The position numbers and the translations under genes were made by a program. Positions 894-55,784 of a stretch of 64,000 nucleotides of DNA are shown one piece after another (position 1 is the stretch's first letter; each line of letters opens with the position of its first letter). The notes below the pieces were generated by a model, which did no database searches, was not told where the DNA came from, and worked only from the letters and a program-made list of their open reading frames with translations. The stretch lies in IMG/VR virus record IMGVR_UViG_3300043436_003324; one strand, given 5' to 3'. The DNA is from a virus.

Positions 894-1217
894 ATGGGAT
901 TACAATATTATAATAGGTATAACCAATTTTTAATTAATGGAGAACAAAATATTGTTCCTTTTGTAAAATTAGATACAAAACCGTCAGATAAGAACTATAT
1001 TTATAAAGTCGGACAATCTAGACTTGACAAGATATCACAACAATATTATGGAACACCATTTTTTGGTTGGTTGGTATTAGCAGCAAATCCTCAGTTTGGG
1101 GGTGAAGAATGGAATATTCCTGACGGATCAATTTTACGTGTACCTTTCCCTTTAGTTGGTTCACTACAAGATTATAAAAATACGATAGAAAATTATTACT
1201 TTTATTATGGCGATTGA
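894..1217 (+). CDS. Baseplate LysM/gpX/gp53-like small protein
   Basis: RLDKISQQYYGTPFFGWLVLAANP...IPDGSILRVP is the degenerate LysM pattern of tail-X/gp53-like proteins; immediately precedes the hub gene. Confidence 0.65.
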   Translation: MGLQYYNRYNQFLINGEQNIVPFVKLDTKPSDKNYIYKVGQSRLDKISQQYYGTPFFGWLVLAANPQFGGEEWNIPDGSILRVPFPLVGSLQDYKNTIENYYFYYGD

Positions 1218-8577: not shown

Positions 8578-8581
8578 CATT

Positions 8582-8618
8582 TTTGAGAGGGACATCAGTG
8601 TCTCTCTCAAATTTTTTT
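8582..8618 (+). terminator. Rho-independent terminator
   Basis: 13-bp stem tttgagagggaca / tgtctctctcaaa (one G-U), loop tcag, followed by T7. Confidence 0.85.
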
Positions 8619-8628
8619 AAATACTTTA

Positions 8629-8659
8629 TTGACTACCCTATTTTTTATAACTATATTTT
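8629..8659 (+). promoter_or_regulatory. Putative early/middle promoter TTG-N20-TATATTTT
   Basis: TTG 8629-8631 and TATATTTT 8652-8659 upstream of SSB; resembles the Bacteroidota -33/-7 consensus. Confidence 0.55.
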
Positions 8660-8689
8660 CTACGTAAACCTTTAATAAATATATACACA

Positions 8690-27515: not shown

Positions 27516-28424
27516 ATGGCAACAGGAACATATGGAACAATAAGACCGGCGGACGTAAGTCCAACTGACGTTGATATTATATTAAATTATACGGAGTCAA
27601 GAGACGTTACAAACAACTTTCAGTTGACAAAATTAAATTCTTCTGCGGTTTTGACCCCTTATTTTCACAACACAAATACTGGAGGTAATTCAGGTGTAGA
27701 AATCTTAGGTGGACTATATAATTTAAGACTACCATCAAATATTTTTAATCAATTAGGGATTTATACATTATATATAAGACCCGCAGAAATTAGAACTAGA
27801 ATAACTGATTGTGGTATATTAGCAGCACTACCAAACATAAAAGGGATAGTGATAGATATAAGTAACGTTCCCGTTTCATTCAGAGATAAATTTGTTAATC
27901 AAGGTTTAATTGGTTATAGGGTTGAATACTTACAGACAAGTGGGGCTAAAATACCAAATTTTTTCAGAATAGTTACCTCATCTTTTTACTGCGAACCCGT
28001 GGTCCAAAATACCACAAACACCTCAACAAGCACTGTTAGATATCAATATGTGAATGGGGTTACAAATTTAATATTTTGTACATTATCACCTTCTTCATCA
28101 CCATCTAACAAACCAAACGCAACACCATTTATTGGTCAACCAGATCAAGAAATAATAATAAGTAATACATTCTTTAATCCTGTTACTATGGAGATTGAAA
28201 TGGTTGAACACGACATTTCCACATTGGCAATTTCCTTGTTTGGTAATCAGACTAAGTCTCTTAATGATGGAATTTATACACTTTACGATACTCAGAATAA
28301 CATTTACAAACAATACAATTTATTTGAAATTAGAGATCAATATAACGAACTTTTATATGAAGTAAAACAAGATAGAGGTGATAACATAGATTTTAGTAAA
28401 AACTTTGCAAATATAACACAATAA
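27516..28424 (+). CDS. Hypothetical virion structural protein (302 aa)
   Basis: Late motif upstream; coupled to next gene. Confidence 0.75.
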   Translation: MATGTYGTIRPADVSPTDVDIILNYTESRDVTNNFQLTKLNSSAVLTPYFHNTNTGGNSGVEILGGLYNLRLPSNIFNQLGIYTLYIRPAEIRTRITDCGILAALPNIKGIVIDISNVPVSFRDKFVNQGLIGYRVEYLQTSGAKIPNFFRIVTSSFYCEPVVQNTTNTSTSTVRYQYVNGVTNLIFCTLSPSSSPSNKPNATPFIGQPDQEIIISNTFFNPVTMEIEMVEHDISTLAISLFGNQTKSLNDGIYTLYDTQNNIYKQYNLFEIRDQYNELLYEVKQDRGDNIDFSKNFANITQ

Positions 28425-31400
28425 TGGCAGTAATAAAATATAAATGGCCTCCACAAACTGATACAGGAGATAGTACATTTTCTGACGATTTAGTTGGGGT
28501 TCAATTAGTTGCCGGTGGGGGATTAACTAACGCTAATTTTGAGTTCACAACAGGAATTACTGAAAAACAAAACAGAACATTTAATATTGGTGCTTTTTCA
28601 GATCCGATAAGTTTATCTGATTTAGATTTAAAAAGTATCGAAGAGTCAAAAGTCTTAATTGCTAAAAATTTACAAGTTTACCCAAATTTTGATTTAAGTG
28701 AAATAACCAACTTTACATTATTTGGATCACTAACAAAAAGAATTTCAACGTCTATAACAAGAATAATTAATTATTTTCCGGCATCCGTAGAATGTTTAAA
28801 GAATAACCTTAATTTTCAAACAGGACTAACGGCAGTTAATATTTTATATAACAAAATTTTAAATGAAACATATTTAGAGATACCTTTAAATTGGATAAGA
28901 AATCCATTCGATATTGATTTTACAACAAACGCAACAAGAAACTTTGAATTAAGTGAGGTTGAGCAATCACCTTTAAGAAATTTAACAGTTCAATATAAGA
29001 ACTATTCAATATTTGTTAATAATTCCGAATATAACGTAGTATTTTTAGATCCTACTGATGAAACTGATAATTATTTAAAACTCTATGTAAATGGAAATCC
29101 TTTTTCAGGGATGTCCGCAACAACAGATAATATCATATTAAGACCCAACACTACTTATACGGAAAAATCGTTTAATGATTTTTTTGATGAGGTAGAAAAA
29201 TTTCTTTTAAATAGATTAATACAACCAATTTATACCGCAACTTTCCAAGTTCCACAAGAAAACAATGATGGTACTTACACAACAACAAGTCAAAACATTA
29301 CATGGCCTTTGGATGGATTGTGGAATTTAGATATTAGAACTAACGATTTTGATAAATATTTAACAACTTTAAATGACTTATGTGAAAACTTAGACTCATA
29401 TAATACTAATTTAATATCAAGGTTTTTAACCACAGGAGCATTAAAAGAATTTGATACTGGTGATAGAAAATTAGAAAAGGTATTACAGATATACGGAAGA
29501 AGTTTTGATGAGGTGAGAAAATTTGTTATGTCATTGGCAAATATGACATCCGTTAATTACAATACAGGTAATGACATACCATCACAATTATTAAAAAATC
29601 TTGCAGAAACATTAGGGTGGAAAACAAACATTTCACCAATAAGTAATGAATCGCTTTTAGATTCAATTTTTGGTACCAATCAAGAAAGTAATTTTCCTGG
29701 ATACTCAAGAGCGTTAACTCCTGATGAAATTAATTACCAATTCTATAAAAATTTAATTTTAAATGCCGCCTATTTGTTTAAATCAAAGGGAACAAGAAGA
29801 TCTATTGAAATTTTATTAAGATTGATTGGAGCACCTGAGGCTTTAATTGATTTTAATGAATACATATACATTGCAGATGAAAGAATAAACCTTTCTCAGT
29901 TTGAAAATCAATATTTAAATATTTCAGGTGGTCTGTATGTACAACAACTTCCTGTTTCAGACCCTACAGATACGTTTTCAATAATGGGAGTCCTATATAA
30001 TGGTTTTACATTACAAACGACTATTAGCGGAGTAACAACAACAAGGTTAGATTATCCAATGGATAGTTTAGGTTACCCAACCGCAGCACAAGAAAGCGAA
30101 GGGTATTTCTTCCAAATAGGAGGAGGTTGGTATGAATCAACACCTGATCATCACATGCCTGAACAAGTTGTAGAGACAAATCAAGTATTTGTTGGTCAAA
30201 ATCCTAATTACCAAACTGTTCTATTACCATTTAATTATGGTCAAACATACCTTGATAGGTATCGTAAATTTCCATTTATGTCTTTAGGTTATGATTTAGT
30301 TAAAGTAATTGATAATAAAAAAAGTTGGACTATTGATAATGTTGGTTTAAGAAATACGTCTGATGGTGGATTTACCGCATACTATAGGGTTTATGATGAA
30401 AGATTTGTTGTAAACGTTAAAAATGTTGACGTATTTTTAAATCCGGCTCAAGGGTTGGTTTATGATGTTTGGTCAATGTCAAGACAGTATAATTACCCAA
30501 TACCAAACGAGGGATTAGACTATGTTGAACCAACATATTGTAACCCTAATCCAAACGGACCATACCCAAATAGGGGGGGTATAGATTGGACTGAAATTAA
30601 CCCAAAACCAAAACAAAAAACATTCTTTGAGTTTGCTCAAACATTTTGGCATAACATGATCAATGTTAGAAATAGACAATTTATTACCGATGGTAAAACA
30701 GGAGGATACCCAACATTACAGTCTATATATTGGAAATACTTAGAATCTGAACAGGCGATTAATATCCCTAACGATAACTTTACATATAAAACAATGATCG
30801 ACTATGTTAATGGAATCGGAGATTATTGGATAAAATTAGTTGGACAAATGATACCAGCAACAACATTGGTAACATCAGGAGTAAGATTGGAAAATTCTAT
30901 ATTTCATAGACAAAAATTTGTTTGGAGAAGACAAATGGGTTGTCAAATAGTTCCAATACCATGTAAACCTTGTGCGTTGGTTGGTCAATTATTTGCGGTT
31001 GATTGTCCTATACAAGAAGTTACTTGTCCTATCTATCCTTGGGGGTCTAATCCAACAGTGACCTCATTTGCGGTTGTGTTAAATAGTTTATTACAATCTC
31101 AAGGATATGTTTTGACTGGTTGTGATCTTAATTCATTAGAAAGTACTTGGTATATTGATTTAGTTTTAAATGGTAATACTTTAGTTCATGATGAATTTTT
31201 TACGGGATATGGTAATACAAGTCCTATTGCTAGTTACCCATCTCAAAACGATTGGATAACCGCACTTGAATCGAGTTTAAGTAATTTACAATCAGAAGGT
31301 TTAAATTATGTTATTAATACTGATGATACTGTTACTGTATATAATGGTAATTGTATTCCATTAAGTGTTACTCAAGATTTTAAAATAAATGTTGGAATAA

Positions 31401-31426
31401 ACTTTAATCTACTTTGTAACCAATGA
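28424..31426 (+). CDS. Baseplate wedge protein, gp7/P2-gpI-like
   Basis: IPSQLLKNLAETLGW...LILNAAYLFKSKGTRRSIEILLRLIG matches the tail-protein-I/gp7 helix motif. Confidence 0.7.
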   Translation: MAVIKYKWPPQTDTGDSTFSDDLVGVQLVAGGGLTNANFEFTTGITEKQNRTFNIGAFSDPISLSDLDLKSIEESKVLIAKNLQVYPNFDLSEITNFTLFGSLTKRISTSITRIINYFPASVECLKNNLNFQTGLTAVNILYNKILNETYLEIPLNWIRNPFDIDFTTNATRNFELSEVEQSPLRNLTVQYKNYSIFVNNSEYNVVFLDPTDETDNYLKLYVNGNPFSGMSATTDNIILRPNTTYTEKSFNDFFDEVEKFLLNRLIQPIYTATFQVPQENNDGTYTTTSQNITWPLDGLWNLDIRTNDFDKYLTTLNDLCENLDSYNTNLISRFLTTGALKEFDTGDRKLEKVLQIYGRSFDEVRKFVMSLANMTSVNYNTGNDIPSQLLKNLAETLGWKTNISPISNESLLDSIFGTNQESNFPGYSRALTPDEINYQFYKNLILNAAYLFKSKGTRRSIEILLRLIGAPEALIDFNEYIYIADERINLSQFENQYLNISGGLYVQQLPVSDPTDTFSIMGVLYNGFTLQTTISGVTTTRLDYPMDSLGYPTAAQESEGYFFQIGGGWYESTPDHHMPEQVVETNQVFVGQNPNYQTVLLPFNYGQTYLDRYRKFPFMSLGYDLVKVIDNKKSWTIDNVGLRNTSDGGFTAYYRVYDERFVVNVKNVDVFLNPAQGLVYDVWSMSRQYNYPIPNEGLDYVEPTYCNPNPNGPYPNRGGIDWTEINPKPKQKTFFEFAQTFWHNMINVRNRQFITDGKTGGYPTLQSIYWKYLESEQAINIPNDNFTYKTMIDYVNGIGDYWIKLVGQMIPATTLVTSGVRLENSIFHRQKFVWRRQMGCQIVPIPCKPCALVGQLFAVDCPIQEVTCPIYPWGSNPTVTSFAVVLNSLLQSQGYVLTGCDLNSLESTWYIDLVLNGNTLVHDEFFTGYGNTSPIASYPSQNDWITALESSLSNLQSEGLNYVINTDDTVTVYNGNCIPLSVTQDFKINVGINFNLLCNQ

Positions 31427-34400
31427 GTTGTGGGTCAATAAATATATATAATTATAGTGTAAGTGGAGACTGCACAAACTCAGGATTTGGAGGGGTTTCC
31501 TTTTCTATTACAGGAGGATCCCCAAACTACACTGTAAGTGAGATATCAACATCAGGTTTATTACCGCTATCATCAAATACAACAACTTATTTTGTTACAG
31601 GTCTAACTCCTGATACTTATATTTTAGAGATTATAGATAGTTGTTTAGAACCACCTTTTATTCCTAGATATGTTGAATTTACAGTATCTTCAGGAACTTG
31701 TGTGTCTATAGAAAGTAGTGGGACTACTTGTGGATTAAATAATGGTACGATTACTGCATCAACAACAAATTATTATGGTGTTGGTTCGTTTTATTTATAC
31801 GAAAACACTTTAGGGTATATAACAAGTGGTGACAGTACAAGTAATGTTTTTACAAATCTTTCACCAGGACTATATTATGTGATCGGTGATGATGGTGGGG
31901 GATGTACAGGAAGAAGTGAAGTTTGTTTAATTAAAGAAACAAGTCCTTTGGACTTTGGTCTATATGTTGTAAATGATGCAAGTTGTGTACCTATTGATGG
32001 TACAGGAAAAATATTTGTAACAGGTTTAACAGGAAATCCGCCTTATACGTATAGTTGGAGTCCTAACGTTGGAACGCAAACAGGTCCTGAAGTTACAGGA
32101 CTAACTTTGGGGACCTACACACTTACAATAACCGACTTTGAAGGATGTACACTAACTAAAAGTGTAGTACTATCTGAGGTTCCTGATTTGGGGGTGGCGG
32201 CAATGTTGACAACAATACAACCCTCTTGTTTTTCAAATGACGGAGAGGTTGTGGTTATTGTTTCAGGAGGAACCGCACCTTATTATTTTTCAGGATCAAA
32301 CGGTGAAATAATAATACAGTATAGTAATATCTATACTTTTACAGGTTTATCTTCGGGAGTATTTACAGTGTCAGTAACAGATGCAGGACTTTGTAATGTG
32401 ATAAGTTCCGTTTCGTTATTAACACCAAATGGTTTTATTGTTACGACAATGTCAGTAACAAACTCTAATTGTAATTCAAGTGATGGGTCTGTTCACATAG
32501 AATTAAATAATGGACTATCTCCTGGAAACTACCAATACACTTTATATGACTTCAACGGAAATTCTACCGTAATTACCACAAATTCAATTTGTGATTTTGT
32601 TGGTTTAGAAAGTGGAAGTTACACAATATTAATACAAGATGTCCCTAATAATTCGGGATGTATATATACTGGACATTTTACTGTTGTAAATGTAAATAAA
32701 TATGAAATATCAGTAAGTTATTCAGATACAACATGTGGTTTAAATAATGGTACCGCAATAATAACCGCTACTTCAGGAGGAACATTACCGTTATCATATA
32801 ATTTATCAGGAGGAACACCCGTTACAACAACAACCCAATTAACAAATGTATTTAACAATTTAAGTTCTGGGTTTTATGTTGCAACAGTAACAGATTCGGG
32901 ATCACCTACCTGTACACAAACTGAAAATTTCTATATTGCAGATTCCCAACCTGTTGATTTTACTTTAGTTGGGGTACAACCAACTATCGGTAATGACGGT
33001 GAAATTTATTTAAATATAACAAGTGGAGTACCACCTTTCACAATTGTTTGGAGTTCAAATGTTGGGGCTCAAACAGGACTACATTTAACGGGGTTATCAA
33101 ATGGAAATTACTCTGTATTAGTAACAGATAGTGAAGGTTGTTTAAAAAGTGATATAATAATATTAAACGGTACTGAATTAACAACTAGTTATGCTTCATA
33201 TACAGTGTGTTCTGATGATTTTGTTAATACCGGAATATATGGTAAGAGAGGAATCTTACAAATGATGAATGAAGGGTTTTTTGATTTAACTTCAGGTGAT
33301 ATTGGTTGTTATATTGTAAATGCGACATTCAGAACTCAAGTAGAAATCGATGGGGTTATAAAAGAAGATTTATTTTATACATATACAGGTGGTAGTTTTG
33401 CTCAATATGCGGACACAATATGGATACAAAGTCTTAAAGACACAATACAAGAATATCCTGAAATTGGTGATGTTATAATTGATCTTGGAAAAAATAAGAT
33501 AACAATCACAAATAACTGTAATGAGAAAATTAAGGATTGTCAGTTAACAAATTTTAATGATTTAGGGGATACAAACGTTAAAATCAATTTACTAATTGAA
33601 TATTTAATTTCTTGTAAAGATTGTGGTAAGGCCCCCGAATGTTTAGGGTTTAACGCGACAATGGTTTTAAATAATAATTGTGAAACATTTAATGCTAATA
33701 TGTCATTAGTTGGACCAACTCCTACCATCACCCCTACACCGACTGTAACACCCACACCAACCGTTACACCCACACCAACACTAACCCCAACCGCAACTCC
33801 TGCGACAATTATGTGTTTTACCGTAAATACTAACTTACTGGTATTACCTTCTTGGGATTGTAGTTTAAATCCTGCCGGTATAATAAACGGTAAACCATTC
33901 TATATAATTTATCTATCAGACTGTACAACAAGTTGTAACAGTGTTGTATATTGGAATAATATAACAAACAGATGGGAACATATTAACCTTTCGTCACCAA
34001 CAATAATTTTACAACATAATGATAATCCATCATATTTTCCAGAAAGTAATGTAACGTATCCATGGGTTACTGATCTTATGATTGCATTTGGATGTGTAAT
34101 AGAAGACTCAATCTTGGGTAACTGTTTAAATCCAACTCCAACACCAACGGTAACACCAACACCAACCCCCACACCAACTATACCGGATACTGGTTGTACA
34201 TGTTATATTTTAGAAGCGACTGCAGATTTAGCAATTTTTGAGTATACAAGTTGTGATTCTTTTTCATCAGATACTATAACAGTTTTTGTTGGAACGGGAT
34301 CCACTTGTTCATTAACCACACCTATTTTACTAAGTGGTATGGGTTCAGTAGTAGGTTCATCTGGGTCATGTATAAGTTATCTGTGGGAAATTACGTTTAG

Positions 34401-34551
34401 TGGCGGAGGTTCATACACCACATATAGTTGTGGTTCATCAAATGAAACTACATTTTTAAGTGGAGGAACGTTCACTGATTGTTCAACAATAACACCGACA
34501 AGTTCATCACCTAATTTTGTGTCGGCAGTAAACCTTGGAATTTGTCCTTAA
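31423..34551 (+). CDS. SprB-repeat, Cys-rich fibre/decoration protein with two Pro-Thr linkers
   Basis: About 7 repeats of G-x-I...GGT(A/P)PY...GL..G.Y...VTD..GC; PT tracts at 33715-33807 and 34132-34185. Confidence 0.75.
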   Translation: MSCGSINIYNYSVSGDCTNSGFGGVSFSITGGSPNYTVSEISTSGLLPLSSNTTTYFVTGLTPDTYILEIIDSCLEPPFIPRYVEFTVSSGTCVSIESSGTTCGLNNGTITASTTNYYGVGSFYLYENTLGYITSGDSTSNVFTNLSPGLYYVIGDDGGGCTGRSEVCLIKETSPLDFGLYVVNDASCVPIDGTGKIFVTGLTGNPPYTYSWSPNVGTQTGPEVTGLTLGTYTLTITDFEGCTLTKSVVLSEVPDLGVAAMLTTIQPSCFSNDGEVVVIVSGGTAPYYFSGSNGEIIIQYSNIYTFTGLSSGVFTVSVTDAGLCNVISSVSLLTPNGFIVTTMSVTNSNCNSSDGSVHIELNNGLSPGNYQYTLYDFNGNSTVITTNSICDFVGLESGSYTILIQDVPNNSGCIYTGHFTVVNVNKYEISVSYSDTTCGLNNGTAIITATSGGTLPLSYNLSGGTPVTTTTQLTNVFNNLSSGFYVATVTDSGSPTCTQTENFYIADSQPVDFTLVGVQPTIGNDGEIYLNITSGVPPFTIVWSSNVGAQTGLHLTGLSNGNYSVLVTDSEGCLKSDIIILNGTELTTSYASYTVCSDDFVNTGIYGKRGILQMMNEGFFDLTSGDIGCYIVNATFRTQVEIDGVIKEDLFYTYTGGSFAQYADTIWIQSLKDTIQEYPEIGDVIIDLGKNKITITNNCNEKIKDCQLTNFNDLGDTNVKINLLIEYLISCKDCGKAPECLGFNATMVLNNNCETFNANMSLVGPTPTITPTPTVTPTPTVTPTPTLTPTATPATIMCFTVNTNLLVLPSWDCSLNPAGIINGKPFYIIYLSDCTTSCNSVVYWNNITNRWEHINLSSPTIILQHNDNPSYFPESNVTYPWVTDLMIAFGCVIEDSILGNCLNPTPTPTVTPTPTPTPTIPDTGCTCYILEATADLAIFEYTSCDSFSSDTITVFVGTGSTCSLTTPILLSGMGSVVGSSGSCISYLWEITFSGGGSYTTYSCGSSNETTFLSGGTFTDCSTITPTSSSPNFVSAVNLGICP

Positions 34552-34584: not shown

Positions 34585-36795
34585 ATGGCATTACAAGTTA
34601 ACATAACAAATATAAACTCAGTCACATATCCTGTTGATGTATATGTTTGTATAGATTGTCCTGATATTAATTGTACTTTAGTTGATACAATTAATTCTGT
34701 ACCCACAACAATAACAATTCCAGGACCATACAGTGGTTATTCCTCATTTGGTGTTAAAATTATAGACGAGGCAAATTGTGAATATTGTCAAACGTTCCAA
34801 GGAACTACCACAACATCAACATCGACAACATCAACAACAACCATTAATCCATTATGTGTTAGTTGTGATATCGGATTTGATTTTTATGACACAAACCCAA
34901 TTGCCGAAATTTCGGTAGGTTTAATAACCGCAAGTTGTGATCCTAGTGTGACTGACTATGTTATAGATTGGTATGGGCCTGGAATTGGTAGTACGACAGT
35001 TGCTTTCACTTCAGGTTACGGAACCGATTATACGGGTGATTATCTTTATGTTCATCCATTAACAGGTTCTTCGGCGGTTCCTGTGGTGGCGGGGGTTTAT
35101 ACCCCAATAATACAAAAAATTAAAATAAATGGGACCGAATATACTGATCTTAATTGTTTTAATTCTTCCACTGTTGACGTTGATGCCCTAACTTGTGATA
35201 ATGGACCAGGTTCAACAAGCCCATATTATAGTCATGGAATTAGTTTTACCGCAACAACAAGCATAACCCCACAACCAGTTACAACAACTTTTGTTTTAGA
35301 TCCGTTAAAACCTTATTTTGCGTATTCTTTTAAAGGAGAGCAAATATACGATGATCTAAAAATAACATTTTTTGGTGGTAATTATTCAGATCCTATAGTT
35401 TTAGAATACATAAGTATGGGACAAAATGTTCCTTTCACAAATTTTAGTTTAAGTTTAAATCCTAAAAATGTAAGGTCGGGAACTCAAAATGTGACTTTCC
35501 CAAAAGTATTATGTTTAACGGCTTTAACAGTTAATGTTGGGGATTATCTGGAAATAGAAGTAACACCAAACCCAATTAATAATAATACTAAATGGGAATT
35601 ACTATGTGAATGTTTAGAAACGTTTGATTGTGAGTTATGTTACGATACTAATTATACAATACCTTATAAAATAATAGAATCTACAATTAATAAAACATCT
35701 GTAGGGTGTGATGGTTATAAATATCCTTTTAAATTATCGGCATGTTCTGATAGTAATATTTATAGATATTTAAATCCGGGTGGACCATATAATTCTATAG
35801 GTGAGATAAATTATAATGGTAGCATAAACGGTTTTATATATGACCCAACAAATGAAATAGATTACAATCTCGCTAAAGTACAAGCAATATACTATAACCC
35901 AGTAACAGAATGCGGAATAGGTGGGTTCCTCCCTTATAGTAAAATATGTGATACCCCCTCTATTTCTACAATTACATATAATAAATCAGTTATTTTTGGG
36001 GAAGGGTTAATTACAATGACCTTTGACACGTATTCAGATTTAGATGATTATTATACTAATTGGGATTTCTTTTATACTAATTATGCCGGAAACCCCTTAA
36101 ATCCGTTGGATATTGACTATTATAGATGGTTTGTATTAACAATACCTTTGGCTAGTGGGGCACAACAATGTGGTGATTTAACAGGTTATCAAACTTACAT
36201 TATACACCCATCTTCGGTTGTCACTACAGGTGGTACAGGTCCTTGGACTATGACGGTTACTATGCCAACAATATCAAACGCATTAACATGGGGTAGTTGT
36301 GATATTGGGTGTACTGGTAATACAATGACTATTGTTGATACTATTAATCAGGCATCAACAGGAATAACAAATAACATATCCATAATCTCAAACACAGGAT
36401 CTAAATTAGAATATCCATTTAATTCATATTATACATTACAGGATAATACATTTGTTAAAACAGGAGCCACAAAATATGCTGAATTTATTATACCTGAATA
36501 CGTAAACACAACAATACCATACTCAGGATCTCCATTAACATTAATACCAAGTTTAAGTGCTCAAACATGTGATTTATCATCTTGGAACTATAATAATCCT
36601 AACCCTACTCGTAACTACGGTAATTTCTCAAGGGGGGTTTATTATTATGATTTTAGGATTGTAAGTCTAAGTGGTGATTTTGAAATATGGACATTTGATA
36701 TTGCAAATAACCCAACCATAACACCTCCGTTTTTTAAAATTTATGAAAACATTGGAGGAGTCCCTAACGTAATAGACCCAAGTTACTTTATATAA
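34585..36795 (+). CDS. Cys-rich putative fibre/decoration protein with Thr/Ser linker
   Basis: N-terminal ~70-aa module shared with 36795 and 46533 ORFs; TTTTSTSTTSTTT at 34804-34842. Confidence 0.75.
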   Translation: MALQVNITNINSVTYPVDVYVCIDCPDINCTLVDTINSVPTTITIPGPYSGYSSFGVKIIDEANCEYCQTFQGTTTTSTSTTSTTTINPLCVSCDIGFDFYDTNPIAEISVGLITASCDPSVTDYVIDWYGPGIGSTTVAFTSGYGTDYTGDYLYVHPLTGSSAVPVVAGVYTPIIQKIKINGTEYTDLNCFNSSTVDVDALTCDNGPGSTSPYYSHGISFTATTSITPQPVTTTFVLDPLKPYFAYSFKGEQIYDDLKITFFGGNYSDPIVLEYISMGQNVPFTNFSLSLNPKNVRSGTQNVTFPKVLCLTALTVNVGDYLEIEVTPNPINNNTKWELLCECLETFDCELCYDTNYTIPYKIIESTINKTSVGCDGYKYPFKLSACSDSNIYRYLNPGGPYNSIGEINYNGSINGFIYDPTNEIDYNLAKVQAIYYNPVTECGIGGFLPYSKICDTPSISTITYNKSVIFGEGLITMTFDTYSDLDDYYTNWDFFYTNYAGNPLNPLDIDYYRWFVLTIPLASGAQQCGDLTGYQTYIIHPSSVVTTGGTGPWTMTVTMPTISNALTWGSCDIGCTGNTMTIVDTINQASTGITNNISIISNTGSKLEYPFNSYYTLQDNTFVKTGATKYAEFIIPEYVNTTIPYSGSPLTLIPSLSAQTCDLSSWNYNNPNPTRNYGNFSRGVYYYDFRIVSLSGDFEIWTFDIANNPTITPPFFKIYENIGGVPNVIDPSYFI

Positions 36796-38397: not shown

Positions 38398-39375
38398 ATG
38401 AAAGATATTGTATTTGTAACCGCACAACCCGATGTTCCATATTTTCATTGGCAAATTAAACTTTATGTTCACAATTTTATAGAAAAAGGAATTGACCCAA
38501 ACCAAATTCACGTAATTTTTGCCATGGTACACGGAGCTAAAACCCCGACTGAAGATGCCTTAAAATTAAAAGATTTTGGAATAAACATTCATTTTTATGA
38601 AGATAATAGAGACGTAAAAACTTATATACCAAGCGTTAAACCTTACCTAATCTCTAAATGGTTAGAGGAATATCCTGAATTTGGTGAGTTATTTTTTCTA
38701 CACGATGCCGATATTATATTTAATTATTTACCTAATTTTAATCTATTATTGGATGATGATATGACATATCTTTCAGACACAATTGGTTATATAGGTTACA
38801 ATTATATTATGGATTGTTGTAATAGATATGAAAAAAACCACCCAACATCTGAAAAAAGCCAATTATTACAAGAAATGGTTGATGTTATTGGAGTTAGTGT
38901 TGATTGTGTTAAATGTAATCAAGAAAATTCGGGTGGGGGTCAATACCTAATCAAAAATACAGATCATAATCTGTGGAAAAAAATATATGACGATTGTACT
39001 CCTTTGTATAACCAAATGTTAGATTATCAAAAAAGATTCCCAATAAATCCAGGAGAGATCCAATTTTGGACTGCAGAAATGTGGTCATTACTTTGGAATC
39101 TTTGGTTAAATGGTAATGAAACAAAAATAACAAAAGAGTTGGATTTTTCTTGGGCAACAGACCCAATACAAGTGTACGAAAAAAAACCAATACTACACAT
39201 GGCCGGAGTAACTGACAATCTTAAAAGAATTAAGTTTTACAAGGGCGAGTATATAAATGTAGACCCAATTGAAAAATTAAGGAATAACCCTAATCATTTT
39301 GATTATGTTGAAGTTAATAATTCAACGATCAAATATATAGAAGTTATGAAATCTTTCATTGAAAACGACAAATAA
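38398..39375 (+). CDS. Putative GT-A glycosyltransferase resembling plant SERGT1/HPAT protein O-glycosyltransferases
   Basis: YFHWQ (38440-38454), YIPSVKP..ISKWL, DxD motif LHDADII (DAD 38704-38712), GYI, SGGG, WTAEMW (39067-39084), ILH; no signal peptide or TM. Confidence 0.7.
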   Translation: MKDIVFVTAQPDVPYFHWQIKLYVHNFIEKGIDPNQIHVIFAMVHGAKTPTEDALKLKDFGINIHFYEDNRDVKTYIPSVKPYLISKWLEEYPEFGELFFLHDADIIFNYLPNFNLLLDDDMTYLSDTIGYIGYNYIMDCCNRYEKNHPTSEKSQLLQEMVDVIGVSVDCVKCNQENSGGGQYLIKNTDHNLWKKIYDDCTPLYNQMLDYQKRFPINPGEIQFWTAEMWSLLWNLWLNGNETKITKELDFSWATDPIQVYEKKPILHMAGVTDNLKRIKFYKGEYINVDPIEKLRNNPNHFDYVEVNNSTIKYIEVMKSFIENDK

Positions 39376-39399: not shown

Positions 39400-40455
39400 G
39401 TGGCATCACCTGATAGACCAAAACCAAGTATTGAACCAAGAAATGAATGTGACGTTCTCACAATATTTCCTATGGGGGCCAAATGCTTCAGTAAAGAACC
39501 AACAAATGTTACAACTTTTAATGGATCTATTGCGGTTGGAGTTACGGGAGGAACACCACCATATACAATTTCTTGGGAAAATGGAAATGTGGCTCCCGCA
39601 ATTACAAATTTAGGGGTTGGAGAATACCCTGTTACAATAACAGATTCTTATGGTGATTTTATTGTTAATACAACATGTATTTTAAGTGCTACGGCATTAC
39701 CAACGCCCACACCAACAGGAACACCAACACCTACACCGACACCTACCATTACGCCTACACCTACTTTAACACCAACGGCAACACCGATACCTAGTCTAAC
39801 ACCATCGGCAACTCCAGAACCAATCATTTGTTTTACAACTGAATATGAATTTTTGGGCCCAATATATACAACAATACCATCAACAGGACTTTATAATGGT
39901 AAGTACTATTATACTTTAGTTGGTGTTGGAGGAAATGCTTACGTTTGGTGGAACTCAACGTTAAATAGATGGGAAATGACTTTAGTTTTAGGTGGAGGGT
40001 TACTACTTGCGTATTTACCATCAACAAATAGTTTCCCTGTTGATAACACAGTTGATTGGGTTAGTGAAAGAGTTACATATATGTTAACATCATATGGTTT
40101 ATGTAGTTATCCGCCAACAGATATGTGTTTTACTGTGGTTAAAAATGGGACAACACCTATAATAATTACAAGTAATGCTTATGTTGCAGGAACGTATAAT
40201 AATAAGTTTTATTATGGGGTATATAATCCTTTAACCTCACCACCATCATTAATTGGATACGTATTTTGGGATGATGTTGATAATAGATGGGAGTTTTGGC
40301 AAATATTTAACCCAACGGCAGGACCTTCAGGGTCTTATTATTCATATTTGAGTAATTCTTCTGATTATCCGAATAGTACTATCACCGAAAATTGGATTAA
40401 TAATCCATCTGTAATATACGGAATAAACGAATCTACTTTAGGTCATTGCGTATAA
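39400..40455 (+). CDS. SprB-like repeat + Pro-Thr linker + two aromatic modules (putative virion decoration)
   Basis: GTG start; GVTGGTPPYTISW...LGVGEYPVTITDS; PT tract 39700-39822; two YN(G/N)K...W...NRWE modules. Confidence 0.75.
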   Translation: MASPDRPKPSIEPRNECDVLTIFPMGAKCFSKEPTNVTTFNGSIAVGVTGGTPPYTISWENGNVAPAITNLGVGEYPVTITDSYGDFIVNTTCILSATALPTPTPTGTPTPTPTPTITPTPTLTPTATPIPSLTPSATPEPIICFTTEYEFLGPIYTTIPSTGLYNGKYYYTLVGVGGNAYVWWNSTLNRWEMTLVLGGGLLLAYLPSTNSFPVDNTVDWVSERVTYMLTSYGLCSYPPTDMCFTVVKNGTTPIIITSNAYVAGTYNNKFYYGVYNPLTSPPSLIGYVFWDDVDNRWEFWQIFNPTAGPSGSYYSYLSNSSDYPNSTITENWINNPSVIYGINESTLGHCV

Positions 40456-40456: not shown

Positions 40457-41461
40457 ATGAATAGTATGGAATTATGTCTTTTATCTGAAGTATTGGAGAA
40501 TAACGTTAGAAAAGTTGAGACTTACGCTTTTGAACCATCAAATGAAGTTAATGGAAAAAATAGTTGGGTTAATTCTAATGGATATACCATATTTTGGTAT
40601 ACGGGAGATACAAACCAATGGGTATTAAGTGGGGTTGAAAATACCTTTATTTTCACATATACCACAAATGATGTTCCATTATCTGGGTGGCAGATTTTGG
40701 GATCAAGACCACCTAAACAAATAAAAAATATTAGAATTACAACAGGAGATTGCGTTAATAATGTGATAGTTGATTATAGTGTTAACATAAAAAACAGTTC
40801 TTGTAAATGTGACGGATCTTTAATCATTGATACTTTTAGTGGGATAGGACCTTTTAAATATTTTTTAAATGATAAAAAACAACTTGGAAACATAATTGAA
40901 AATCTATGTGAAGGTAAATATGTTGTTAAAGTTGTTGATAGTAAAGAATCGGAAACAATTAAGGAAGTTATAATACCAAAAAATAAATCTACACAATATT
41001 TTGTTACATTAAATTATAATAAAACTAATGGAGAATTTAGTGTTGTTTGTAATCCTGAATTAACAAATAATATAAAATTAAAATTTGATCTTGTTTATCA
41101 AAATGTTTTAAATTATGGACCAGAAGTAAATTCTGTTATACAAAATTATACCGAACAAGTCTATATTAATAATAGAGATATAAGTGAATACACAAATTTT
41201 AGTGAAAACACCCAAGTTACTAACTTACAAAGACCATGTATTGGTAGTAATTATAGAATAATTAAAATAAAAGAATGGCAAAATTTAACCATTGAAAGTG
41301 GGGACACGTTAATAGGATATATTATGAGTAGTATTAGTCCAAATATTGACGTTAAAACTTTATGTTATAATGGTAGTCAAGATTTGACATTAACTTTAAA
41401 AAATTTACAAGTAATTAATTGCAATTGTTGTAATGTTACGAAGGTAGTTTTTAACAAATAA
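40457..41461 (+). CDS. Putative virion protein with aromatic module and SprB-like repeat
   Basis: VNGKNSW...IFWY...NQW; DGSLIIDTFSGIGPFKY...LCEGKYVVKVVDSK. Confidence 0.7.
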   Translation: MNSMELCLLSEVLENNVRKVETYAFEPSNEVNGKNSWVNSNGYTIFWYTGDTNQWVLSGVENTFIFTYTTNDVPLSGWQILGSRPPKQIKNIRITTGDCVNNVIVDYSVNIKNSSCKCDGSLIIDTFSGIGPFKYFLNDKKQLGNIIENLCEGKYVVKVVDSKESETIKEVIIPKNKSTQYFVTLNYNKTNGEFSVVCNPELTNNIKLKFDLVYQNVLNYGPEVNSVIQNYTEQVYINNRDISEYTNFSENTQVTNLQRPCIGSNYRIIKIKEWQNLTIESGDTLIGYIMSSISPNIDVKTLCYNGSQDLTLTLKNLQVINCNCCNVTKVVFNK

Positions 41462-41489: not shown

Positions 41490-44195
41490 ATGGCATATAT
41501 AATTAAAAATACATCAGGGTTAGTTAACACTAGAGTTACTGACACAGGTAGAAAAAAATTATCACAGGGTAGTTTTAAGATTGCGTATTTCCAAGTAGGG
41601 GATAGTGAAGTGTCGTACGATAAATTACCATCAAATTATAATTACAATAATTTATTTGTGTTAGAACCTGCATTCAATACACAAAACTCTGCGGGAGTAC
41701 CTGAATCAAATAGACAAAGTATTAAATATCCTTATTATGTTGATGGATCTAGTGGATCAACATATGGTATACCATATATGGACTCTGTTGTTGAACCTGT
41801 TTATAATAGAGCCCCATTAAGAGGTTTTTTTACGGGTAATACCACCGCCGACACAATAGTTTGGAGTGCATTAACTAATGATCAGTATGTTGTTAGTTCT
41901 AATTATGTTATAGATATGTCCACATTAAGTGGGTCAAATAAAGTACAAATAATATATTCTGGATGTAACTATACGAATTTAAATAAACCATCTATAGGCG
42001 ATATTATAACAATTTATTATGATGGTTTTGGAGAGTATGACTGTAGTTGTATTAATTTACCAACACCAACCCCAAGCGTAACCCCAACACTCACACCAAC
42101 ACCCACATCATCTCAAATGCCAATTTCAGAGACATGTATATTAATGACAGAATTATCTGAATTTTTAACAACAGAAGATGGAGATTTCTTGGTATGGGGA
42201 GATTGTCAAGAAGTTCCGGCATTAACACCTACACCGACATCATCTCAAACACCAACACCGACACCGACACCAAGTGTTACTAAAAATTATAATCCTTGTG
42301 AGTCGCCAACACCTACACCTACGCCAACTAAAACACCATGTTTGACGCCTACACCTAGTAGATTGTGTCCGGCACCACCACCACCTAATTGTGTGGTCTC
42401 TATGAACTCTTGTTATCAGATATTAACATATAGAATTGTTGATGTTTGTGAAGATATAATAACATTAGATAGAAATACACCTGATTTTTGCGGTACCGTT
42501 ATTAGTCATTGTTATGCGAGAACTTTAATTTATCCACCAAACATGACATCTATATATGATAGTCTAACACCAAACCCACATTGGGGTGAACAAGTTATTG
42601 ATTTTGAATCAATATGTGATACCGATCAGTTTGATGTAAAAATTTGGAATATGAACATTCCATGGACTGAAAATCCTGCTGGTTTAGTACCAACAAAATA
42701 TGAAGGGTATGAATATTTTGGATCTGTAGATTATATCGGGTCTAAAGAATACTTTGGGTACAATTCAAATTCAGGTCAGACATTTTTTATTAATAACACT
42801 TTAAGTGCTGAGACAACAGATACATTCTATTATAACTCTTTAGGTGAAGTTGTTGATGTTGAACCTGAAGAACAAAAAGCGATTGCAATTATACACTACA
42901 CTAATCAAACTATAGATTTCTTCTATGGTGAAAAATTTGCGTTAGAACCTTATGATCCGTCAAATCTTGATGATACTACAGGTCAAGCAAGAAATTTTAG
43001 ACTACATATACCATGGTTAATGTGGCATAAAAATCCCGATTGTTGTTTTGGACAAACGTTTTGGGTAGATCCTCCAGAATTTGAAGGTAAGGGACTATTC
43101 CAAGTGAGATATGTACAAACAACTAAAAATGATGATATGAATAATCCTGGAATTAGATATTATCATCTTTGGGATAACAATAAAAATAAAAATGGACTAC
43201 CTAATAGAATTGGTAAAGTATTCCCTGATAGTAAATTAATTATTATTGATGATGAAGAGGTAATTGCCTCAATGTCTTACAAGTCAAATAGAAACTTTAC
43301 ATTACCAGCACCACAACTATCGTTAATAACCCCAAACACTTGTGGACAAGCATCTTTAAATGCTGATGGGGTTCTTACAGGTAATGGAGAAACTATGTAT
43401 GTAACTTATAGATTTACAAATAAAACATGTAGTACTAATTCACTACATTGTAATTACTATGTTAAATTAGTTGGTAATAATAATGATTGTAGTCCTAATG
43501 TTTCACAAAACGTGGCGGTAAGATTTGGAAGAGAGTTTAATTGTTTGGGGGAAAATCCAATAACAACAACAACTACAACTTATTATCCAATCACAACTAC
43601 AAGTACCACTTATTATCCAATCACAAGTACAACTACTACTTATTACCCAATCACCACCACAACAACAATATGTCCACAAACTTGTGACATCACAAAAGGT
43701 TATTTTGCGGAATACTTCCAAATAATTTGTCAAAAAGTGGTAACAGGTCAAAGACCTGACCCATCAAATTGGAGAGTAATTGATTATACGAGTGATTTAG
43801 GGGGTATAGTAACCCAAGACACATTAACAAATAATACATTTGTTATAACTAAAGATCAATATGATAAAGCACCATATTATGATTTAGGTAATTACATTAA
43901 TTTAACAAAAATTGGTAATGATGTACCTGATTTAAATTTTGGTGATGAATACTATTTTTATGGGTCTTTTGAGTCTGATATTATGGCAACAATATATGAG
44001 ATGAAATATAAAATTAATTTAAATTTTACCGAGTTCCAAAATACAACAAACCCAACTTGGAAACAAGGGACAAAATCTTATATAACCGAAATTGCATTGT
44101 TAGATGAAGATAAAGATATATTAGTTATGTCTAAATTACAATCACCTGTTTTAAGACAGGGAATCCAACAGTACTTAGTTAAAATAGATTTTTAA
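41490..44195 (+). CDS. Baseplate/tail-fibre attachment protein with several Pro-Thr and Thr-rich insertions
   Basis: N-terminal VTDTGRKKLSQGSFKIAYFQVGDSE and C-terminal YITEIALLDEDKDILVMSKLQSPV resemble tail-collar/gp8-like ends; PT tracts 42060-42113 and 42225-42386. Confidence 0.7.
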   Translation: MAYIIKNTSGLVNTRVTDTGRKKLSQGSFKIAYFQVGDSEVSYDKLPSNYNYNNLFVLEPAFNTQNSAGVPESNRQSIKYPYYVDGSSGSTYGIPYMDSVVEPVYNRAPLRGFFTGNTTADTIVWSALTNDQYVVSSNYVIDMSTLSGSNKVQIIYSGCNYTNLNKPSIGDIITIYYDGFGEYDCSCINLPTPTPSVTPTLTPTPTSSQMPISETCILMTELSEFLTTEDGDFLVWGDCQEVPALTPTPTSSQTPTPTPTPSVTKNYNPCESPTPTPTPTKTPCLTPTPSRLCPAPPPPNCVVSMNSCYQILTYRIVDVCEDIITLDRNTPDFCGTVISHCYARTLIYPPNMTSIYDSLTPNPHWGEQVIDFESICDTDQFDVKIWNMNIPWTENPAGLVPTKYEGYEYFGSVDYIGSKEYFGYNSNSGQTFFINNTLSAETTDTFYYNSLGEVVDVEPEEQKAIAIIHYTNQTIDFFYGEKFALEPYDPSNLDDTTGQARNFRLHIPWLMWHKNPDCCFGQTFWVDPPEFEGKGLFQVRYVQTTKNDDMNNPGIRYYHLWDNNKNKNGLPNRIGKVFPDSKLIIIDDEEVIASMSYKSNRNFTLPAPQLSLITPNTCGQASLNADGVLTGNGETMYVTYRFTNKTCSTNSLHCNYYVKLVGNNNDCSPNVSQNVAVRFGREFNCLGENPITTTTTTYYPITTTSTTYYPITSTTTTYYPITTTTTICPQTCDITKGYFAEYFQIICQKVVTGQRPDPSNWRVIDYTSDLGGIVTQDTLTNNTFVITKDQYDKAPYYDLGNYINLTKIGNDVPDLNFGDEYYFYGSFESDIMATIYEMKYKINLNFTEFQNTTNPTWKQGTKSYITEIALLDEDKDILVMSKLQSPVLRQGIQQYLVKIDF
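43557..43670 (+). repeat. 30-bp-period coding repeat (PITTTTTTYY x ~3.8)
   Basis: Units start at 43557, 43587, 43617, 43647 with synonymous variation. Confidence 0.9.
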
Positions 44196-44867: not shown

Positions 44868-44898
44868 AATATCATCTTTTTAGATGGTATTTTTTTTT
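44868..44898. terminator. Terminator between convergent genes
   Basis: 10-bp stem aatatcatct / agatggtatt, T4 loop, followed by T-run; lies between RuvC-like stop and minus-strand stop. Confidence 0.7.
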
Positions 44899-46531
44899 AT
44901 CCTAAAAGTGAAGAATCACATAAATCAAAAACAGTACCTGCACAATTTGCCGCTCCATTACCTGTTATTGTAAGAGTTGTGTACGGTGCCAAAGTTGTAA
45001 ATGTGAATATACCTGAACCAACATTACCTTGAGGGGATGTTTGAGGACAAGGAGATGCCTCTATAATATTACCATTAATTTTAGCACAACAATAAATACA
45101 ACTTGAAATAGATGGGTTAGATGAATTTGTTGTAAACGTAAAGGTTTCATAGTTTGTTGGACTTAAATAATCATAATTATTTATTCTTAAACTTATGTTA
45201 TTTACGGGTTGACTAAATGTTAAAGTATATGAGAATGGATAATCCACAGGTAAAACACCATTACCTAAATATAAAAACCCGTCTTGGACCAAAGGACCTG
45301 TAAGGCACCAACCTAAGAAACCACCAAATATCCCTTCTTCTATTGCACCTGTTCCGTTACCTGTAATTGTTATACCATTAACCGTAATTGAATTACCAAC
45401 TTGAGGTAAGTTGGTTATTAATGAACAATCAACACAACCAGCAGGAGTTGTTGGTGTAGGTGTTGGGGTTGATGTTGGTGTAGGTGTTGGGGTATTTGAA
45501 GGGATCGGAATACAATCCAAACACTTACCTTCATTTTCAGGACCAAGTTCTGACACTAATTCTATTTTATCAACACCACTTATGTTATCCACTAAACCTA
45601 AGAAAGTCGCACAAATAGATTCATCATTAATTATTGTTTTATAAACATAACCTTGTATAGGGATTTCACCATTTATAAGAATTAGATCGGCACTAAAATA
45701 TTCAGTTCCTGTAAAACAATCTCTAAATTTCTTACTATTTGAACATCTTATGTAATCATCAATAATATTAAATGTAACTAAACCTGAAACCAAACAATCT
45801 ATTGTTGGCGTTGGAGTTGGACTTGGTGTGTCGCTAGGTGTTGGTGTGGGTGTTGGGGTATATGTTATACCTGTTGCGACAAAATTTAAACTATTACACA
45901 CATTAGATGGTGTTGGAGTTACTGTAGGGGTTGGTGTTGGTGTTGATGTTGGAGTAACAGTTGGAGTTGGAGTAACATCACAATTAAATAATGCCTCAAA
46001 ATCAATTATGTCACAACTATTATATGTTGTTGTTGTACTTACCACACAATATCCTTCAGTAAAAAATGTTTCACATAAGTCAGGACAATTACTAAGACAA
46101 GGTGATTTACCAAAAAGTTCACAGGGACCGTCTAATACGGAAGAAACGCACCAACAAGTCTCGCCTGTCGAATAGTAAATCACATAACTCCCACTTTGTC
46201 CTGTATAATATGGGAAACCGTTATAAGATCCATTAAACGTATAGTTATCGTCATACGTGTCTGTACCTGAGATACAGTATTCTGTATTACATTCGGCACA
46301 AGGTTCTATGGTTTCTATGGTTCCCCTGTCACTTGTTTCACCAACTGTATATGTATTAATCCCGTCAGAATAAAATCCATTATTTACCAACACTGTACAT
46401 AAGGAATCTGAATAGATTAAGGATCCCAAGTTTAAATCATCACCATAAATTGATATAGTTTTAATTTCGTCACAAAGTAATTTAGGACTAATTGATGAGT
46501 AGGAAAACGTTCCAAGTAAAACACAAGCCAT
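44897..46531 (-). CDS. Cys-rich putative virion protein with three Pro-Thr linkers
   Basis: 544-aa ORF; PT tracts ~45441-45509, ~45803-45866, ~45908-45976; YNGFPYY aromatic module. Confidence 0.8.
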   Translation of the reverse strand: MACVLLGTFSYSSISPKLLCDEIKTISIYGDDLNLGSLIYSDSLCTVLVNNGFYSDGINTYTVGETSDRGTIETIEPCAECNTEYCISGTDTYDDNYTFNGSYNGFPYYTGQSGSYVIYYSTGETCWCVSSVLDGPCELFGKSPCLSNCPDLCETFFTEGYCVVSTTTTYNSCDIIDFEALFNCDVTPTPTVTPTSTPTPTPTVTPTPSNVCNSLNFVATGITYTPTPTPTPSDTPSPTPTPTIDCLVSGLVTFNIIDDYIRCSNSKKFRDCFTGTEYFSADLILINGEIPIQGYVYKTIINDESICATFLGLVDNISGVDKIELVSELGPENEGKCLDCIPIPSNTPTPTPTSTPTPTPTTPAGCVDCSLITNLPQVGNSITVNGITITGNGTGAIEEGIFGGFLGWCLTGPLVQDGFLYLGNGVLPVDYPFSYTLTFSQPVNNISLRINNYDYLSPTNYETFTFTTNSSNPSISSCIYCCAKINGNIIEASPCPQTSPQGNVGSGIFTFTTLAPYTTLTITGNGAANCAGTVFDLCDSSLLG

Positions 46532-54451: not shown

Positions 54452-54982
54452 ATGAAATATATCTTATTTATCTACCGTTGTGACGATAAAAAAAACAAAA
54501 CCGAATTTGTCGGAGGAATTGCTCAAGAATTAAGTCCAATTGTTAAATCAGACGAAATTAAATTTGTTTTTGGTGATACAAACGCGGTTTACCATTTTGA
54601 AACAGAAATGTCATTTCCTGAATTGAATATCTATTTGGAATTAGTTAGTAAAGACTTTGATGACTTTACGTACTTCTTAATCCCAAAAGGAAGGAATTTT
54701 GCAAGTAATATTGAGAAACAAAATTTAGACCACCTAATGGATCTTTATCCAAATAAGAAAAAAAGAAAAAGTAATAAAGGTATCTTTGAATTACCTAAAA
54801 TTGAACTCAACGAAGAGGAGTTTATAAAAAATTATCTATCATCTGTTGATTATAAGGAAAAAAATGAAGATATTTGTATCCTTACAGTTGATGAGATATT
54901 AGATAAAATAACAGATAATGGTATTAACTCTTTAACTAAATCAGAAAAAAATAAACTTGACGAATATTCTAAAAACGTATAA
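54452..54982 (+). CDS. Hypothetical protein with C-terminal DUF6576-like helix pair
   Basis: LTVDEILDKITDNGINSLTKSEKNKL; start placed at ATG 54452 because tracked TTG 54401 overlaps the promoter motif. Confidence 0.7.
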   Translation: MKYILFIYRCDDKKNKTEFVGGIAQELSPIVKSDEIKFVFGDTNAVYHFETEMSFPELNIYLELVSKDFDDFTYFLIPKGRNFASNIEKQNLDHLMDLYPNKKKRKSNKGIFELPKIELNEEEFIKNYLSSVDYKEKNEDICILTVDEILDKITDNGINSLTKSEKNKLDEYSKNV

Positions 54983-54983
54983 T

Positions 54984-55784
54984 ATGAAAGACAAAAATGT
55001 TGGGGCACCAATAAACCAAGAAGAAATTCAACACTACCTTAAAGACATTAGGAAAATAAAAGTTATGACTCCCGATAGAGAAAAGGAAATGGCAAAACTT
55101 ATGAAGTCAGATGAAATAAGTGTGGACCAAAGAAAACAAATTGAGGAAGAATTACTTAGAGGTAACTTACGTTTTGTGATAACAGTCGCAAAACAATACC
55201 AAAACCAAGGATTGGATCTTTCAGATTTAATCGCTGAAGGTAATTTAGGTCTTATGAAGGCAATTAAACACTTTGATTGGAATAAGGACTTAAGATTTAT
55301 CTCATACGCAGTGTGGTGGGTTAAACAATCTATAATCCAATCATTAAATGATAACGCAAGAACAATAAGACTACCAGTTAATGTTGTTCAGGATCTACAA
55401 AGAGCAAAGAAAGAGTTAGAACAAACAGGTAAAAAACTTGAAGATAAGTTCTCATCTTTACCATCAATAATTGATTTAGATATGAAAATTAATGATGAAG
55501 GAGATACTTTAATTGACATGATCTCAAACCCAGATGCCGAACAACCTGATTCAGCATTTAATACTAAAGATTTATTAAAAGATAAATTAATGTCTTTGTT
55601 AAATGTTTTAGACGATCGTGAAAAAATAATTGTTGGAGATTATTTTGGGTTAACAGGAACACCAAGAACCCTTGAGGACATTGGGACTGATTTTGGCCTA
55701 ACAAAAGAAAGAGTTAGACAGATTAAAGAAAAAGCGTTACGAAGACTTAGAAATGGTGGTTCTGTATTATTTGAATATATTTAA
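54984..55784 (+). CDS. Sigma-70 family RNA polymerase sigma factor (RpoD/RpoS-like, no region 1.1)
   Basis: YLKDI (1.2), NLRFVITVAKQY...DLIAEGNLGLMKA...FISYAVWWVKQ (2), TLEDIG...LTKERVRQIKEKALRRL (4.2). Confidence 0.93.
   Translation: MKDKNVGAPINQEEIQHYLKDIRKIKVMTPDREKEMAKLMKSDEISVDQRKQIEEELLRGNLRFVITVAKQYQNQGLDLSDLIAEGNLGLMKAIKHFDWNKDLRFISYAVWWVKQSIIQSLNDNARTIRLPVNVVQDLQRAKKELEQTGKKLEDKFSSLPSIIDLDMKINDEGDTLIDMISNPDAEQPDSAFNTKDLLKDKLMSLLNVLDDREKIIVGDYFGLTGTPRTLEDIGTDFGLTKERVRQIKEKALRRLRNGGSVLFEYI

Follow-up and report, generated by a model that had tools for sequence, protein, structure and literature searches.

A predicted phrog_4417-family glycosyltransferase encoded among Thr- and Pro-Thr-rich fibre-like genes of a giant phage: a candidate system for virion glycosylation

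To our knowledge, glycosylation of phage virions has been demonstrated only in mycobacteriophages, and the report on mycobacteriophage glycosylation is said to describe it as rare elsewhere. In the chloroviruses, the glycans are N-linked to Asn. Mycobacteriophage virion glycosylation, in Che8 and its relatives, was reportedly described by Freeman et al. in 2023 (Cell Host Microbe 31:1216). In this system, which is also summarised in PMC11256854, glycosyltransferases encoded by the phages attach O-glycans to the C-terminal ends of the capsid and tail-tube subunits. A literature search covering poly-threonine or Thr-rich phage glycosylation, HPAT in phages, and crAssphage glycosyltransferases returned no account of poly-Thr tags or of the phrog_4417 family, which is the subject here.

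The gene under study lies at 38398-39375 (+ strand) of the window, that is, of the whole 64-kb stretch of viral DNA that was analysed. The initial annotation had put its 325-aa product forward as a relative of the plant enzymes HPAT and SERGT1 on the basis of a series of motifs: YFHWQ, YIPSVKP..ISKWL, LHDADII, GYI, SGGG, and WTAEMW. All of these are present in the open reading frame and in the order given, the DxD motif being formed by D103 and D105, and the opposite strand is dense in stop codons. The protein had also been described as soluble and devoid of a plant-type membrane anchor; indeed, it has no N-terminal hydrophobic helix, and its structural model opens with a beta-strand at residues 5-11. 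It matches the profile of phrog_4417, a family listed under "unknown function", with an E-value of 1.1e-68 (residues 6-319 aligned to positions 3-290 of the 293 in the profile). No Pfam family matches the protein, and no glycosyltransferase family, GT8 (PF01501) included, appears at E <= 10; the core domain of 142 relatives likewise matches no Pfam glycosyltransferase family, and a profile search of the PDB sequences with the enzyme gave only chance-level matches. The family is large: a search of 90%-identity clusters gave 1,157 matches, and at 50% identity there are 834 cluster representatives. Homologues were found with tblastn in 77 phage records, none of which is that of a Mycobacterium phage. 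Among the carriers are dairy phages of Lactococcus and Lactobacillus, phages of Enterococcus and Staphylococcus, and giant phages that are uncultured, aquatic, and abundant.

The phage itself is large and uncultured. The window (G+C 31%) is syntenic with the 43-108 kb region of a complete IMG/VR genome of 290,887 bp, G002, which indicates a genome of about 300 kb and thus a giant phage. Its genes include those for a UvsX-like recombinase, an exonuclease, a DnaB helicase, a ribonucleotide reductase, and a baseplate-wedge protein, followed beyond 44.2 kb by a RuvC-like resolvase, a primase, SbcCD-like genes, and a sigma-70-family factor. A crAss-like phage had been considered, and this idea was dropped after the baseplate-wedge, UvsX-like, DnaB, and ribonucleotide reductase genes were found. 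Among isolates, the nearest homologue of the enzyme is that of Chryseobacterium phage MA9V-3 (40% identity), and this points to a host among the Bacteroidota. With megablast, the locus matched no isolated phage, and tblastn searches with the neighbouring proteins of 28424-31426 and 41490-44195, and with the neighbour of the gene in MA9V-3, gave no further isolates. Two other large ORFs of the window, 1207-7602 (2131 aa) and 18363-23843 (1826 aa), both on the + strand, have as their sole family match a weak one of the first to 'tail protein'. No other sugar-related gene was found in the 64-kb window. In the complete relatives, there are 7-8 matches to GT2, all in other parts of the genome, and G002 also has an NAD-dependent epimerase above the family threshold. 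This epimerase gene is at 121.9 kb, and GT2 genes are found at 219-221 kb and, as a cluster, at 271.7-280.7 kb; about 5 kb past this cluster, two consecutive ORFs, 286256-289132 and 289134-289922, are rich in Pro-Thr.

The neighbourhood of the gene is rich in threonine. The annotation had counted five flanking putative virion genes with at least ten Pro-Thr or poly-Thr/Ser tracts. A strict tract was defined here as one in which at least 9 of 10 residues are S, T, or P, at least 4 of them being T, and ORFs of at least 100 aa were scanned throughout the window. Ten strict tracts emerged, in five ORFs, none of them farther than 7.2 kb from the gene; the stretches 1-31 kb and 46.5-64 kb were free of them. 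The codons for Thr and Pro vary within the tracts, which are therefore not simple DNA repeats. Upstream of the gene, an SprB-repeat fibre-like protein of 1042 aa (31423-34551, + strand) contains two Pro-Thr tracts (nt 33715-33780 and 34132-34185), and a 736-aa protein (34585-36795, + strand) contains one Thr/Ser tract (nt 34801-34845). Directly downstream, a 351-aa protein (39400-40455, + strand) with one strict tract has an SprB repeat, after which come a long Pro-Thr linker (from nt 39700) and a small C-terminal domain in two copies. Further on, a 901-aa protein (41490-44195, + strand) has three Pro-Thr tracts (nt 42060-42338) and a TTTTYYPI repeat (nt 43551-43673), and a 544-aa protein of no known family, encoded on the opposite strand (44897-46531, - strand), has another three Pro-Thr tracts. 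These five proteins are the candidate acceptors.

Between 39400-40455 and 41490-44195 lies a tract-free gene, 40457-41461 (+ strand), for an all-beta protein of 334 aa, the predicted fold of which is a string of Ig-like domains; it resembles adhesins and the Aureispira grappling-hook fibre, and so marks the neighbourhood as adhesin- or fibre-like. Since the genes form a co-directional block that starts from the baseplate-wedge gene, and since two of them encode SprB repeats and one the Ig-like string, it is reasonable to infer that the neighbours are virion fibre genes, as the annotation had labelled them. Several of them are modular and highly variable among relatives. After the Pro-Thr linkers of 31423-34551 and 39400-40455 comes a small segment with the pattern xNGKxxY...(V/F)WWxxxxNRWE, present twice in the latter protein, and a similar one is found near the N-terminus of 40457-41461; this recurring segment may be a displayed binding domain.

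The annotation had also given the enzyme gene a promoter of an early or middle type and its neighbours a late motif. The candidate element, TATTTATWA, lies 12-25 nt upstream of several starts, including those of the genes at 27516, 37127, 39400, and 41490 (sites on the + strand at 15974, 27488, 37106, 39379, 41476, 49315, and 57371), and the 35 nt that precede 38398 do not contain it. Overall, its 19 matches, versus 13.4 expected, are not a significant enrichment. A scan for consensus promoters was at chance level (37 matches versus 29.8 expected), and the same holds for the sigma-70-like match in the gap before 38398. An earlier timing of the enzyme gene, as put forward in the annotation, is unsupported. 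The sigma-70-family factor encoded at 54957-55784 (+ strand), downstream of the SbcCD-like genes, has regions 1.2, 2, and 4 and could drive a promoter class of the phage's own.

The relationship between the enzyme and Thr-rich proteins is clearest in the phages of Firmicutes, in which the enzymes are 32-37% identical to the 38398-39375 protein. In the siphophages of this group, the enzyme gene is located inside the morphogenesis module and adjoins a capsid or tail-tube gene: in bIL285 and nattely, it immediately follows the capsid or probable capsid gene, while in phiFL2B and phiCTP1 the gene immediately before it is the probable tail-tube gene. In each of these four, a poly-Thr tail ends a capsid, tail-tube, or head protein. 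A comparison was then made between IMG/VR loci retrieved with structural-protein queries from which the tails had been removed beforehand. Among homologues of the phiFL2B tail-tube protein, the poly-Thr tail was present in 12/12 loci with the enzyme versus 0/15 without it; for the bIL285 tail-tube protein, the figures were 14/14 versus 0/66, and for the phiFL2B capsid protein, 12/12 versus 0/12. Summed over the three sets, the C-terminal tail occurs in 38/38 enzyme loci and in 0/93 enzyme-free loci. In the bIL285 set, one 98%-identical protein has neither the tail nor the enzyme. In nattely-type loci, Thr-rich tails were found in all four with the enzyme and in neither of two distant loci without it.

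Pooling the two tail-tube sets gives 81 enzyme-negative loci (1,403 kb) with no strict tract versus 26 positive loci (486 kb) with 36 tract-bearing ORFs; Fisher's test on these loci, which are not independent of one another, yields 1.6e-23. On a tree of the tail-tube core, the enzyme and the tail each undergo four changes of state, and the four independent contrasts on the best tree are concordant (two of them on well-supported branches), four being too few for a significant sign test on the tail-tube family alone. The linkage extends to bacterial contigs: many single-domain versions of the enzyme, most of which come from prophages of Firmicutes and phage-like contigs of Bacteroidota, are encoded right next to a protein that bears a poly-Thr tail or tract. 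Such a tail or tract is lacking at several other single-domain loci, some of them on short contigs. In MA9V-3 and other Bacteroidota phage-like contigs, the gene comes directly after that of a protein with a poly-Thr tract. The proposed linkage to Thr-rich virion genes in relatives is thus observed in the Firmicutes phages, in MA9V-3, and, as described below, in the phage's own lineage. These genomic comparisons make it likely that the family glycosylates the Thr-rich tags of Firmicutes phage virion proteins.

In the giant-phage lineage, 80 related IMG/VR loci were compared: tract-bearing ORFs lie no more than 10 kb from the gene in 77 of them, and the remaining three loci have hardly any sequence downstream of the gene, or none. 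In G002, four of the seven tract-bearing ORFs are within 8 kb of the enzyme gene. A search for enzyme-negative relatives of this lineage found none, the anchor gene 40457-41461 retrieving near-identical contigs only, so the case for the Pro-Thr linkers as acceptors is one of adjacency. The suggestion that the enzyme acts on both kinds of tract therefore divides in two: the part on poly-Thr is supported by the way the tails track the enzyme in Firmicutes phages, whereas the part on Pro-Thr linkers depends on the position of the genes. Taking both parts together, we consider it fairly probable, and a little less so than for the Firmicutes tags, that the enzyme glycosylates the Thr and Pro-Thr tracts of the neighbouring fibre-like proteins.

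What would the enzyme do if the Pro-Thr linkers were plain spacers? It could still be a peptide or protein O-glycosyltransferase, with the poly-Thr/Ser stretches (those of 34585-36795 or the TTTTYYPI repeat of 41490-44195) or some other phage or host protein as its acceptor. This possibility accords with the fact that every contrast test concerns poly-Thr and with the presence in G002 of the two Pro-Thr-rich genes that are far from the enzyme gene and close to the GT2 cluster. However, in the 80 loci of the lineage, the tracts around the gene comprise 479 Pro-Thr versus 87 poly-Thr tracts, and in the window the Pro-Thr tracts are confined to the surroundings of the gene, which makes mere spacers rather unlikely.

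The AlphaFold2 model of the enzyme, based on a 60-sequence alignment, has a pLDDT of 97 and a pTM of 0.93 and adopts a GT-A fold, with a Rossmann-like arrangement and the DxD motif after a beta-strand. Y76, D105, Y131, G180, F250, H267, G270, and Y313 are invariant across 60 diverse members of the family, and D103 is nearly so; the conservation of D103, D105, H267, and G270 would fit the metal site of GT8 enzymes, formed by the DxD motif plus a His. In Foldseek, the top ranks are occupied by WbbM, the ABO transferases (GT6), UGGT (GT24), glycogenin, and LgtC (GT8), and the nearest solved folds are of the GT8 type (glycogenin, the Skp1 alpha-galactosyltransferase, LgtC, WbbM, and UGGT); the top matches are all what we take to be retaining enzymes. 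In relatives, the domain is fused to partners that include GT2, GT6, GT7C, GT25, GT29, PF11397 (a GlcNAc-transferase), O-FucT, and F5/8-type-C domains and, once, a radical-SAM/SPASM domain. The fusions to other glycosyltransferase domains imply that the phrog_4417 domain works in enzymes that build glycans. Given this predicted fold and these catalytic residues, the product of 38398-39375 is very probably a glycosyltransferase.

The comparison with solved structures, which the annotation had proposed as a check on the acceptor, came out on both sides: glycogenin, the Skp1 alpha-galactosyltransferase, UGGT, and GlyE are directed at proteins, but the LOS and O-antigen enzymes LgtC and WbbM, whose acceptors are oligo- or polysaccharides, score equally well, and hence the fold by itself does not name the acceptor. 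Another possibility, then, is that the acceptor is not a protein at all: host cell-wall or teichoic-acid polymers, LPS/O-antigen, or phage DNA could be modified, with the Thr-rich tracts as unrelated linkers. The rank of LgtC and WbbM among the best matches is in line with this, as are the many GT2 genes and the epimerase in relatives, which could serve the synthesis of a polysaccharide. On the other hand, the enzyme is soluble and in Firmicutes phages is encoded within late structural operons and not beside an integrase or membrane genes of the Gtr type, and an enzyme with a non-protein acceptor would not predict that the poly-Thr tail follows it from locus to locus as it does. As for DNA, the small temperate phages of 35-39 kb that carry the enzyme speak against its glycosylation, a point to be counted as an expectation and not as a result. 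Overall, a non-protein acceptor seems improbable, even more so than plain spacers. Finally, a catalytically inactive protein, serving as a structural or sugar-binding component of the virion, would also fit the location in structural modules but is highly implausible in view of the conserved D103, D105, H267, and G270 and of the repeated fusions to other catalytic glycosyltransferase domains.

If tract glycosylation is the function of the enzyme, it might proceed as follows. A soluble, metal-dependent GT-A enzyme would be made in the cytoplasm of the infected cell and would transfer the first sugar from a host nucleotide-sugar onto the hydroxyls of Thr (or Ser) in poly-Thr and Pro-Thr tracts of fibre-like proteins made by the same phage, before or during assembly. 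The anomeric configuration would probably be retained, as by GT8-type folds. The glycan might then be extended by other glycosyltransferases encoded elsewhere in the genome of roughly 300 kb. The outcome would be extended, protease-resistant linkers coated in glycan.

The likeness to HPAT, on which the initial annotation had relied, survives in a reduced form: the order of motifs is that of the Pfam HPAT family (PF23452), and a remote link appears with hhalign, but the protein falls below the threshold of the PF23452 model and the hhalign support is uneven. The PF23452 model found no match in the 38398-39375 protein (E <= 10), in the 142 relatives (E <= 0.01 or 0.001), or in three related phage genomes (E <= 10). 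The hhalign comparison of the phage-family profile with an alignment of 27 PF23452 proteins, built from a protein search starting at a Myxococcales gene, gave a probability of 77% and an E-value of 2e-5 over 246 columns, that is, the whole domain. Compared with single PF23452 proteins, the profile gave 92% for one (E 6e-7, 105 columns) and 51% for the other, and a noisier alignment of fused forms gave 3.8% with the register unchanged. In all of these comparisons, the same motifs are aligned: PYxxWQ, Y..KP..WL, DxD, W-x-[AS]-[DE]-M, I-x-H, and K..Y. The PF23452 proteins used were bacterial, with no plant HPAT or SERGT1 sequence among them.

Several findings bring the two families together in other ways. 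In the nearest named ESM-Atlas clusters, PF23452 is assigned to 10% and 58% of the members. In a Myxococcales MAG (L214:2136-4255), 36 nt separate a PF23452 gene from the phrog_4417-family gene downstream of it, and in a Microthrix MAG (L216:3178-4143 and 8001-8963), the distance between the two is about 3.9 kb. The Myxococcales gene served to collect a family that is fused to PqqD, a domain that binds peptides, and several of its members bear the NCBI name 'PqqD family protein'; PF23452 is present in only one of 301 genomes of the phylum of that MAG. Kinship between the phrog_4417 enzyme and HPAT at the level of a superfamily, short of membership and with reference to the bacterial PF23452 proteins compared, is therefore something we hold to be quite probable. 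The annotation had further suggested a search for a prolyl 4-hydroxylase, such as would create the hydroxyproline (Hyp) modified by the plant enzymes. The one prolyl-hydroxylase-type family searched for, the 2OG-Fe(II) oxygenase PF13640, was missing from two complete relatives and one fragment, although the host could supply such an enzyme. Going by this family, Thr/Ser would be a likelier acceptor than Hyp.

The family also has two-domain forms of 450-620 aa, on the chromosomes of Chitinophaga, Mucilaginibacter, Pedobacter, and Sphingobacterium, and no strict tract was found within 3.9 kb of these. This observation means that the family is not tied to Thr tracts everywhere. In Chitinophaga polysaccharea (L233:2293-10873), a two-domain homologue of 574 aa lies between SPASM-like and LanC-like genes, with a gene of the HlyD family upstream, in what looks like a cluster of the RiPP or bacteriocin type; across the two-domain loci, HlyD homologues are present in 16 and LanC-like genes in five. 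Such a context points to the modification of secreted peptides, and the two-domain forms would thus fit a family that is directed at peptides, with different acceptors.

A wider proposal can be made, to which we give an even chance. This is that there exists a portable, two-part module for glyco-tagging, spread across the phages of Bacillota and Bacteroidota, in which a poly-Thr or Pro-Thr tag and a dedicated, HPAT-like cytoplasmic glycosyltransferase would together put O-glycans on capsids, tails, and fibres; glycosylation would be common among phages, and one superfamily would link the glycosylation of plant extensins and peptide hormones, bacterial peptide glycosylation of the RiPP type (the PqqD fusions and the LanC/SPASM clusters), and the glycosylation of phage particles. 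In that case, virion glycosylation would no longer count as an oddity of actinophages. If the enzyme does glycosylate virions, the resulting coats would matter for how the immune system sees therapeutic phages, for the stability of particles, and for their adhesion to mucus or host surfaces, and both virion proteomics and cryo-EM maps would need to be read with glycans in mind. Paired with one soluble enzyme, a short poly-Thr tag would also make a simple tool for protein glycosylation in the cytoplasm. The prediction is directly testable in cultured phages, including prophage bIL285 of L. lactis IL1403.

How, then, does this locus compare with the known systems? It resembles the mycobacteriophage system in that, in the Firmicutes relatives, a phage glycosyltransferase is associated with C-terminal tags on capsid and tail-tube proteins. 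It differs from it firstly in the family of the enzyme, secondly in the location of the phrog_4417 gene, which is inside the structural module or the fibre cluster, and thirdly in the tags, which are poly-Thr or Pro-Thr and which, in the window, are internal linkers of large fibre-like proteins. Towards the plant and algal HPAT (PF23452, GT95) and SERGT1 (GT96), the likeness lies in the ordered motifs, as aligned, with uneven support, to bacterial PF23452 proteins, and the acceptors of HPAT and SERGT1 are Pro-rich, hydroxyl-rich peptides; unlike these enzymes, the phrog_4417 enzyme is below the PF23452 threshold, has no type II membrane anchor, and is not accompanied by PF13640 in the complete relatives. 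Glycogenin, Skp1 Glat1, GlyE (from the pneumococcal pathway for serine-rich-repeat adhesins), and LgtC have a similar fold but only 8-12% sequence identity, and there is no match to Pfam GT8. The structural match is weaker with A64R of PBCV-1 and with other capsid glycosyltransferases of giant viruses, and the host of the chloroviruses is eukaryotic. Phage virion glycosylation would therefore be the known kind of system to which this locus belongs, and the enzyme family and the type of tag are candidates for what is new in it.
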